Shown piece by piece: positions 2,121-2,199 of a DNA stretch of 64,000 nucleotides. The stretch comes from Escherichia phage WPEC4. The stretch lies in sequence record PV682947.1; one strand, given 5' to 3'. The position numbers and the translations under genes were made by a program. Within the stretch, counting starts at the first letter, position 1. Each line of letters opens with the position of its first letter. The notes under the pieces were generated by a model. The model was not told where the DNA came from. It worked only from the letters and a program-made list of their open reading frames with translations, and ran no database searches.

Positions 2121-2199
2121 AGCGGGATAGAGGAGTCTGGTCGTCCTCGCCAGTTTCATATGCTGGAGATCATTGGTTCAAATCCAATTCCCGCCTCCA
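2121..2199 (+). tRNA. Second CAT-anticodon tRNA (Met, initiator-like, or Ile2/lysidine type)
   Basis: Anticodon arm CCAGT-TTCATAT-GCTGG; T-arm ATTGG-TTCAAAT-CCAAT; A1 opposite C72 mismatch; CCA. Confidence 0.55.

Follow-up and report, generated by a model that had tools for sequence, protein, structure and literature searches.

The CAU-anticodon tRNA gene at 2121..2199 of the window, by which we mean the whole 64,000-nucleotide stretch of Escherichia phage WPEC4 that was analysed, is an initiator-type tRNA and is neither a tRNA-Ile2 nor a standard elongator tRNA-Met. It is very likely derived from a bacterial initiator tRNA and kept under selection for initiator features. Similarity to host genes, identity positions, isotype covariance models (CMs) and TilS identity all agreed and, therefore, the gene was assigned to the initiator type.

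Sequence and fold of the gene

ARAGORN called a tRNA-Met(cat) with boundaries at exactly 2121..2199, and the Rfam model RF00005 matched 2121..2196 with 50.1 bits, compared to a gathering score of 29. The cloverleaf was also the minimum free energy (MFE) fold of 2121..2199; its MFE z-score of -1.88 is unremarkable and was not counted as evidence. From its 5' end the tRNA reads AGCGGGA UA GAGG AGUCUGGUCGU CCUC G CCAGU UUCAUAU GCUGG, followed by AGAUC AUUGG UUCAAAU CCAAU UCCCGCC U CCA. The coordinates of its parts, and of the other features discussed here, are collected in Table 1.

Table 1. Features of the tRNA gene and its surroundings
Feature	Position	Strand	Details
Initiator-type tRNA(CAU)	2121..2199	+	76 nt to the discriminator, then encoded CCA (2197-2199); ARAGORN, Rfam, MFE, CMs
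Acceptor 5' strand AGCGGGA	2121..2127	+	A1 (2121) unpaired; G2, C3, G4 and G5 as in E. coli tRNA-fMet
D arm GAGG/CCUC	2130..2148	+	A11 (2131):U24 (2147), a purine11:pyrimidine24 pair typical of bacterial initiators
D loop of 11 nt; variable loop of 5 nt (AGAUC)	within 2121..2199	+	
Anticodon arm CCAGU UUCAUAU GCUGG	2150..2166	+	CAU at 2157-2159; G30 (2153):C40 (2163)
T arm AUUGG UUCAAAU CCAAU	2172..2188	+	T loop the same as in E. coli tRNA-fMet
Acceptor 3' strand UCCCGCC, then discriminator U73 (2196)	2189..2196	+	C72 at 2195
Ile2-type (lysidine, AUA-decoding) CAU tRNA, predicted	274..348	+	C4:G69, C5:G68; best score with the Ile2 CM
Sigma-70-type promoter, consensus match only	1592..1621	+	TTGACA-18-TATAGT, 11/12 matches
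Intrinsic-terminator-like hairpin	2315..2333	+	7 bp, 5 G:C, then UUUUU; end of the tRNA unit

A preliminary description of this DNA had placed A1 opposite C72. Direct reading of the sequence and the Rfam alignment agreed on this, and 1:72 was the sole non-canonical pair in the alignment of 2121..2196. The same description had stated that the three G:C pairs of initiator anticodon stems are missing. The stem consists of C27:G43, C28:G42, A29:U41, G30:C40 and U31.G39, so that two of the three are absent and G30:C40 alone is present (A:U / G:C / U.G).

Class of the tRNA

A distant blastn search of 5,426 E. coli genomes returned a sole E. coli match, the initiator tRNA gene metY (tRNA-fMet2), located between argG and rimP-nusA. 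The match had E = 8 in 28 Gb, which alone is not significant and, therefore, it was used as a pointer only. Global alignment gave 70% identity to metY, 59% to the elongator gene metT and 57% to ileX. The fMet-like positions of the phage tRNA are G2:C71, C3:G70, G4:C69, G5:C68 and A11:U24, together with the variable loop AGAUC and the T loop UUCAAAU, whereas in the references for elongator Met and Ile2 the pair at 11:24 is C11:G24 and those at 4:69 and 5:68 are different. Positions 2-5 read GCGG in 41 of the 43 canonical bacterial initiators sampled. All 43 have the discriminator A73, in contrast to U73 here.

CAU tRNAs were sampled from 120 loci of diverse genomes, the bacterial ones were sorted by textbook criteria, and three CMs were built for initiators (R1), elongator Met (R2) and Ile2 (R3). 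These are our own models and not those of tRNAscan-SE. Their training sets were labelled heuristically, the Met and Ile2 labels by a C4,C5 heuristic for which E. coli metT and ileX were the only check, and seven or eight ambiguous Ile2-like sequences were taken out of the elongator Met set by hand. All 17 elongator training sequences have C11:G24 and a paired or wobble 1:72. The E. coli controls metZ, metT and ileX were all placed correctly (Table 2). The phage tRNA scored best with the initiator CM, by a margin over the elongator CM of 14 bits compared to 27 bits for the host initiator. With these substitute models, an elongator-Met call, which would have contradicted the preliminary description, was not obtained.

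Table 2. Scores (bits) with the initiator (R1), elongator Met (R2) and Ile2 (R3) CMs
Sequence	R1	R2	R3
Phage tRNA, 2121..2196	65.9	51.8	35.4
E. coli metZ (control)	102.5	75.8	59.0
E. coli metT (control)	59.1	83.3	80.4
E. coli ileX (control)	39.2	81.2	91.2
Window 274..345	59.3	67.8	73.8

The preliminary description had also allowed for an Ile2 tRNA. E. coli TilS recognises its substrate by the pairs 4:69 and 5:68, and changing C4:G69 to G4:C69 nearly abolishes the activity of a related enzyme (PMC11947777). A check for these elements found the E. coli pairs C4:G69 and C5:G68 absent and G4:C69 and G5:C68 in their place. The Ile2 CM also gave the lowest of the three scores, and this suggestion was dropped.

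Set against bacterial tRNA-fMet as a class, the phage tRNA has the CAU anticodon, an unpaired 1:72, the combination of G2:C71, C3:G70 and A11:U24, and its best score with the initiator CM; it has neither three consecutive G:C pairs (29:41, 30:40 and 31:39; 3GC) nor A73. Since the canonical 3GC and A73 are lacking, it was classed as an initiator-type variant and not as a canonical tRNA-fMet. A paired 1:72, pyrimidine11:purine24 and a best score with the elongator CM, which together mark elongator tRNA-Met, are all absent, as are the C4:G69 plus C5:G68 and best Ile2 score of tRNA-Ile2.

Conservation among relatives

Homologues were gathered from GenBank phages and IMG/VR. Nine distinct Stephanstirmvirinae sequences had eleven variable columns, with pairing kept in every stem change. 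The T stem covaried among relatives (AUUGG/CCAAU, AUCGG/CCGAU and GUAGG/CCUAC), and in the nine sequences G6:C67 and G2:C71 varied only to G.U. The anticodon arm was invariant in all nine, and 1:72 was AxC, CxC, UxC or CxU, unpaired in each case. The gene is conserved across two phage genera; its T-stem changes are compensatory, and no substitution breaks a stem. Within Phapecoctavirus, gene and flanks alike are 96-99% identical, and this comparison is uninformative on gene-specific conservation.

For 20 phage relatives drawn from widely differing families, 95.6% of the cells pair and both sides have changed in 14 of the 21 pairs; none of 500 shuffles reached the observed pairing values. C3:G70, A11:U24 and G30:C40 were invariant in all 20. 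Position 1:72 was unpaired in 13 of these relatives, A:U or U:A in seven and G:C in none. In the bacterial initiators it was CxA (27), CxU (12), UxU (3) or AxA (1). A shift of the letters at 1:72 without a strong pair is the pattern predicted by selection for an open 1:72, and it matches the bacterial initiators. The initiator variant named in the preliminary description was supported by metY as the closest host gene, by the presence of all initiator signatures in the acceptor and D stems, by the best-scoring CM and by the conserved non-pairing at 1:72.

Distribution and public labels

Over its first 2782 bases the window matches Escherichia phages WPEC6 and WPEC2 at 100% identity, and many Phapecoctavirus genomes (phAPEC8 group, subfamily Stephanstirmvirinae) match it at 98-99.8%. 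The gene was found in 126 phage records at at least 90% identity, and most of them label it tRNA-Met. This recurrence and the compensatory stem changes go beyond what chance would give. ASO2A, annotated with tRNAscan-SE, has tRNA-Met-CAT and not fMet; Mt1B1_P17 has "tRNA-Pseudo-CAT"; and the WPEC6 record lacks the gene and has a 162-nt CDS spanning the locus. Met, fMet and initiator tRNAs go unmentioned in the one Phapecoctavirus paper that was checked (PMC10698182). In more than 100 public Phapecoctavirus and Justusliebigvirus genomes, the gene is labelled tRNA-Met, pseudo or nothing, and the companion Ile2 tRNA is mostly labelled Met. Analyses of codon usage and tRNA repertoire in these therapeutic-candidate phages are skewed by such labels.

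The tRNA array and its second CAU tRNA

ARAGORN found ten tRNAs between 274 and 2199, including the CAU tRNAs at 274..348 and 2121..2199, and Ser(UGA) at 661-750 and Tyr(GUA) at 975-1058 were added at relaxed thresholds. From its match to the consensus, the promoter in Table 1 probably drives a unit of Gly-Gln-Pro-Ile-(pseudo-tRNA)-initiator-type tRNA. The hairpin beyond the last tRNA is also annotated as a rho-independent terminator in the ASO2A record. Decayed tRNA-like relics are present at 1158-1235 and at 2046-2113, the latter adjoining the initiator-type gene, and neither was detected by Rfam at E<=1. Set beside the gene at 2121..2199, these relics show how a truly decaying tRNA gene appears in this array.

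Judged by its sequence, the CAU tRNA at 274..348 is of the Ile2 type and not an elongator Met. The preliminary description had called it an elongator-like tRNA-Met, a label that has to be revised in view of its Ile2 score of 73.8 bits compared to 67.8 bits with the Met CM, its C4:G69 and C5:G68 and its likeness to ileX. Its identity is 76% to E. coli ileX and 84% to a prophage tRNA-Ile(CAT), and the ASO2A record (tRNAscan-SE) annotates it as tRNA-Ile-CAT.

Proposed function

It is reasonably probable that the gene at 2121..2199 encodes a functional phage-borne tRNA, drawn from bacterial initiator tRNA, that works by a mechanism of six steps. We also lean towards its acting mainly as an initiator in infected cells. 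Whereas the gene, its fold, its class and its selective maintenance come from the present analysis, the steps from charging to the initiator pool are inferred from published E. coli genetics.

In the proposed mechanism, transcription of the promoter-to-terminator unit would yield this tRNA as its last, and host RNase P together with 3' exonucleases would process it, with CCA already encoded (step 1). Host MetRS would charge it with methionine via the CAU anticodon (step 2), and the host formyltransferase would then formylate it (step 3). Formylation is proposed on the basis of the unpaired 1:72 together with G2:C71, C3:G70 and A11:U24; it depends mainly on the 1:72 mismatch and is aided by these same three pairs (PMC7949028). 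The unpaired 1:72 and the formyl group would allow the tRNA to avoid EF-Tu (step 4). IF2 would bring it to the 30S P site, G30:C40 being the least that E. coli requires for a tRNA to be selected as initiator (step 5). During infection it may thereby supplement or replace the host initiator pool (step 6).

Systematic mutagenesis found only the middle pair G30:C40, essentially G30, to be essential in E. coli, and the "1st AU", "3rd CG" and au/GC/gu mutants can each serve as the only initiator tRNA of growing cells, at a cost in fitness (PMC5389676). The phage stem is au/GC/ug and keeps the essential middle pair. Its U31.G39, a pyrimidine:purine pair, lies outside the tested mutants and the natural au/GC/gu variants of that study. 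Initiators poor in 3GC compete poorly with the wild type (PMC7949028).

A speculative idea, which we regard as improbable, is that the altered stem-loop (U32, U38, G39 and A29:U41) is an adaptation against host toxins that disable tRNA-fMet, and not drift. According to a survey in eLife (2023), tRNA-fMet is a target of VapC, and for that reason phages generally avoid carrying it (PMC10264068). The enteric VapC (VapC/MvpT) cuts tRNA-fMet between A38 and C39, according to a statement in PMC4105405 that cites Winther & Gerdes. In the phage tRNA this dinucleotide is U38-G39, as in all nine subfamily members, and positions 37-39 are altered in the Erwinia and Aeromonas phage versions too. If the idea were true, a toxin would collapse the host initiator pool and free the 3GC-poor phage tRNA from competition with wild-type tRNA-fMet. 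Initiation could then pass to the phage tRNA, which would rescue the synthesis of phage proteins, and resistance to the nuclease would explain why a weak competitor is kept. In the context of phage-host conflict, the gene offers a specific candidate, open to experimental test, for an initiator that resists nuclease cleavage.

Alternative explanations

The main rival to a tRNA that acts mainly in initiation is plausible, if unlikely, and supposes dual use. A Met tRNA with U73 and an altered body might be only partly formylated; the formylated part would initiate, the rest would be carried by EF-Tu to internal AUG codons, and the phage would have one all-purpose Met tRNA like the single mitochondrial tRNA-Met. 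Two points make this plausible. The tRNA cluster of the phage contains no separate elongator Met, the other CAU tRNA being Ile2, and an unformylated initiator tRNA can elongate: C1xA72 does not keep unformylated tRNA-fMet out of elongation, and in mitochondria a single tRNA-Met serves initiation as well as elongation (PMC7949028). U73 and the weakened anticodon stem are departures from a dedicated initiator, and weak A1:U72 or U1:A72 pairs are seen in some phage tRNAs (seven of the 20 relatives and 19 of 109 viral sequences). However, all nine subfamily sequences have a true mismatch at 1:72, including the non-wobble CxC and CxU, which is the opposite of what EF-Tu prefers. Moreover, AUG is not rare and the host supplies elongator tRNA-Met. 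An ordinary elongator tRNA-Met that supplements AUG decoding during infection is a considerably weaker candidate. It would fit the label in most records, the CAU anticodon and the loss of A73 and of two initiator G:C pairs, but its CM falls 14 bits under the initiator CM, 11:24 is A:U and not C:G, the acceptor stem is of the tRNA-fMet type and the nearest host gene is metY and not metT/U. Selected non-pairing at 1:72, which stayed unpaired through four letter combinations in the nine subfamily sequences, would also penalise EF-Tu binding. Elongator identity was rejected on these scores and on 11:24, 1:72 and the nearest host gene.

A decaying or non-functional pseudogene, as annotated in Mt1B1_P17, is very improbable. 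That single flag, an Rfam score that is the lowest of the ten ARAGORN tRNAs in the cluster, the modest MFE z-score and the clearly decayed elements nearby would speak for it. Yet the score is well over the gathering score, the gene is conserved in two genera with compensatory T-stem changes and intact stems, the anticodon arm is invariant, CCA is intact and encoded, and the neighbouring relics, unlike this gene, escaped Rfam. The pseudogene reading was rejected on the covariation. Least probable of all, to the point of being negligible, is an Ile2 tRNA whose C34 is converted to lysidine by host TilS so that AUA is read as isoleucine. The CAU anticodon would allow it, and the rare AUA codon is often served by phage Ile2 tRNAs. 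Against this, a good Ile2 candidate is already present at 274..348, and the inverted TilS identity pairs (PMC11947777) together with the lowest CM score led to its rejection. The preferred reading remains a phage-borne tRNA that acts mainly as an initiator.

Comparison with known systems

A census of IMG/VR, with selection only on positions 2-12, UCAU and GGUUC, yielded 109 distinct viral initiator-type sequences, 34 of them in arrays of at least four tRNAs. U24 was present in all 109. At 1:72, a G:C pair was found in one sequence (none of the 34 in arrays) and a true mismatch in 84, 12 of them AxC (26 of the 34 in arrays). G30:C40 was kept in 104 (32 of 34 in arrays) and the full 3GC in 27 (7 of 34 in arrays). 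The AU/GC/UG stem occurred in seven of the 109 and U73 in six. We defined the phage initiator-type class operationally by location in an array, an xGCGGG acceptor, A11:U24, G30:C40 and a 1:72 that is not G:C, with the outer 3GC pairs left free. The gene at 2121..2199 has every one of these properties; it is one member of a widespread and relaxed class that is common in phages and not new. Phage initiator-type tRNAs amount to a natural mutagenesis series in which G30:C40 and an unpaired 1:72 are nearly always kept and the first or third G:C is usually lost. This series independently supports the middle pair alone as indispensable, and it extends the natural exceptions to 3GC past mycoplasmas and alpha-proteobacteria.

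With E. coli metY and metZWV (tRNA-fMet1), the phage tRNA has in common the CAU anticodon, the unpaired 1:72, G2:C71, C3:G70, G4:C69, G5:C68, A11:U24, G30:C40, the T loop UUCAAAU and the encoded CCA, and it has AGAUC as in metY. It differs from them in having AxC instead of CxA at 1:72, A29:U41 and U31.G39 instead of G:C pairs, U73 instead of A73, U32 and U38 instead of the C32 and A38 of E. coli tRNA-fMet, a D loop of 11 instead of 9 nt and a D stem of GAGG/CCUC instead of GAGC/GCUC. With tRNA-Ile2 (ileX/ileY and the prophage ileZ type) it shares the gene anticodon CAU, whereas 4:69 and 5:68 have the opposite orientation to the TilS set, 11:24 is A:U and not C:G, and 1:72 is unpaired.

Natural 3GC variants are known from alpha-proteobacteria and mycoplasmas as au/GC/GC, GC/GC/gu and au/GC/gu (PMC5389676; Shetty et al. 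2017). These variants and the mutants of Shetty et al. resemble the phage tRNA in losing the first and/or third G:C and keeping G30:C40. Our genome sample contained 13 natural 3GC-variant initiators, all with G30:C40 and A11:U24. The natural variants have three consecutive purine:pyrimidine pairs, whereas the third pair of the phage tRNA is U31.G39; they are also cellular and have A73 and a canonical loop, in contrast to the phage-borne gene with U73 and UUCAUAU. This loop was found in none of the 109 viral and none of the 60 bacterial initiator-type sequences sampled, and among the sequences sampled it is specific to the Stephanstirmvirinae. U73 is not universal among the relatives, as "inny" has A73.

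Both fMet and Met tRNAs have been reported in the core genome of Schizotequatrovirus with tRNAscan-SE 2.0 (bioRxiv 10.1101/2024.12.24.630238). These phages have an elongator Met too, unlike the phage described here. Further parallels are genes labelled tRNA-Met in S-CRM01 and in phiCbK-like, phiEa104-like and Aeromonas phages. Like the gene at 2121..2199, they lie in an array, have xGCGGG, A11:U24, G30:C40 and an unpaired or weak 1:72, and score best with the initiator CM. S-CRM01 has the same A29:U41/G30:C40/U31.G39 stem, and Ccr2 has the same GAGG...CCUC D arm with an 11-nt loop.

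Organization of the tRNA array

The tRNA array at the start of the window would comprise at least three transcription units, judging from the repeated promoter-like sites that set them apart, as seen in the table below. Two of its tRNAs, Ser(UGA) and Tyr(GUA), scored weakly in the Rfam search and were not called when ARAGORN was run on the window with default settings. The Tyr tRNA carries a "pseudo" label in the record of the relative Mt1B1_P17.

Tyr and Ser tRNAs, tRNA-like relics and promoter-like sites of the window, and related CAU tRNAs of other phages
Feature	Position	Remarks
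Promoter-like site	window 35-64	AAAACTATTGACAAC, 18 nt, then -10
Promoter-like site	window 622-651	AAAACTATTGACAAC, 18 nt, then -10
Promoter-like site	window 1592-1621	AAAACTATTGACAAC, 18 nt, then -10
tRNA-Ser(UGA)	window 661-750	Rfam 37-39 bits range; matched by tRNA-Sec model
tRNA-Tyr(GUA)	window 975-1058	Rfam 37-39 bits range
tRNA-like relic	window 1158-1235	cloverleaf-like fold, tRNA-sized spacer
Weaker tRNA-like relic	window 1514-1593	weakly cloverleaf-like fold, tRNA-sized spacer
tRNA-like relic	window 2046-2113	cloverleaf-like fold, tRNA-sized spacer
CAU tRNA	L028 54-130	Klebsiella phage Sugarland, T5-like
CAU tRNA	L029 54-130	Aeromonas phage Aes012, T4-like
Initiator-type tRNA	L015 61-135	Erwinia phage phiEa104; loop UUCAUUA
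Initiator-type tRNA	L017 61-138	Aeromonas phage Asswx_1; loop CUCAUUA

The relic spacers are probably decayed tRNA genes, with acceptor stem and T arm intact and anticodon arms broken. They were detected by ARAGORN solely at -ps80, and none was matched in the Rfam search of the window at E<=1. In Justusliebigvirus relatives, the equivalent array holds Phe, Leu(UAG), Lys, and Leu(UAA) tRNAs.

Comparison with the records of relatives

The initiator-type tRNA(CAU) of the window is left out of the record of the relative WPEC6, where it is spanned by CDS0071, a 162-nt "hypothetical protein" (window 2088-2249) whose call is almost certainly spurious. The Thr and Gly tRNAs are among those overlapped by further small CDSs of WPEC6. 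Window 1-2782 corresponds to the plus strand of WPEC6 (25429-28210) and window 2783-27000 to its minus strand (117001-92784), a split also seen in all other relatives. The junction may reflect a genuine rearrangement or, alternatively, an artefact of assembly or stitching in the source. At about 580 nt beyond the initiator-type tRNA on its downstream side, it leaves that gene unaffected.

CAU tRNAs of other phages

A near-identical CAU tRNA is common to Sugarland and Aes012, which suggests tRNA exchange among unrelated phage families. The initiator covariance model fits it best by a slim margin (55/48/45 bits for initiator, elongator Met, and Ile2 models). It resembles the initiator-type tRNA of the window in the D arm (GAGG..CCUC) and anticodon arm (CCAGU/GCUGG), but the acceptor stem differs: it reads UGCACCG, has the mismatch A4xA69 and pairs U1:A72. 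Position 37 of tRNAs is almost always a purine; it is U in the initiator-type tRNAs of phiEa104 and Asswx_1.

The usual tRNA T loop is UUCRAAU. The other CAU tRNA of the array, of Ile2 type (window 274-348), has AUCGAAA, whereas its closest prophage relative has a normal UUCAAAU. The A54 and A60 of this loop are the same letters as in the T loop of eukaryotic initiators.
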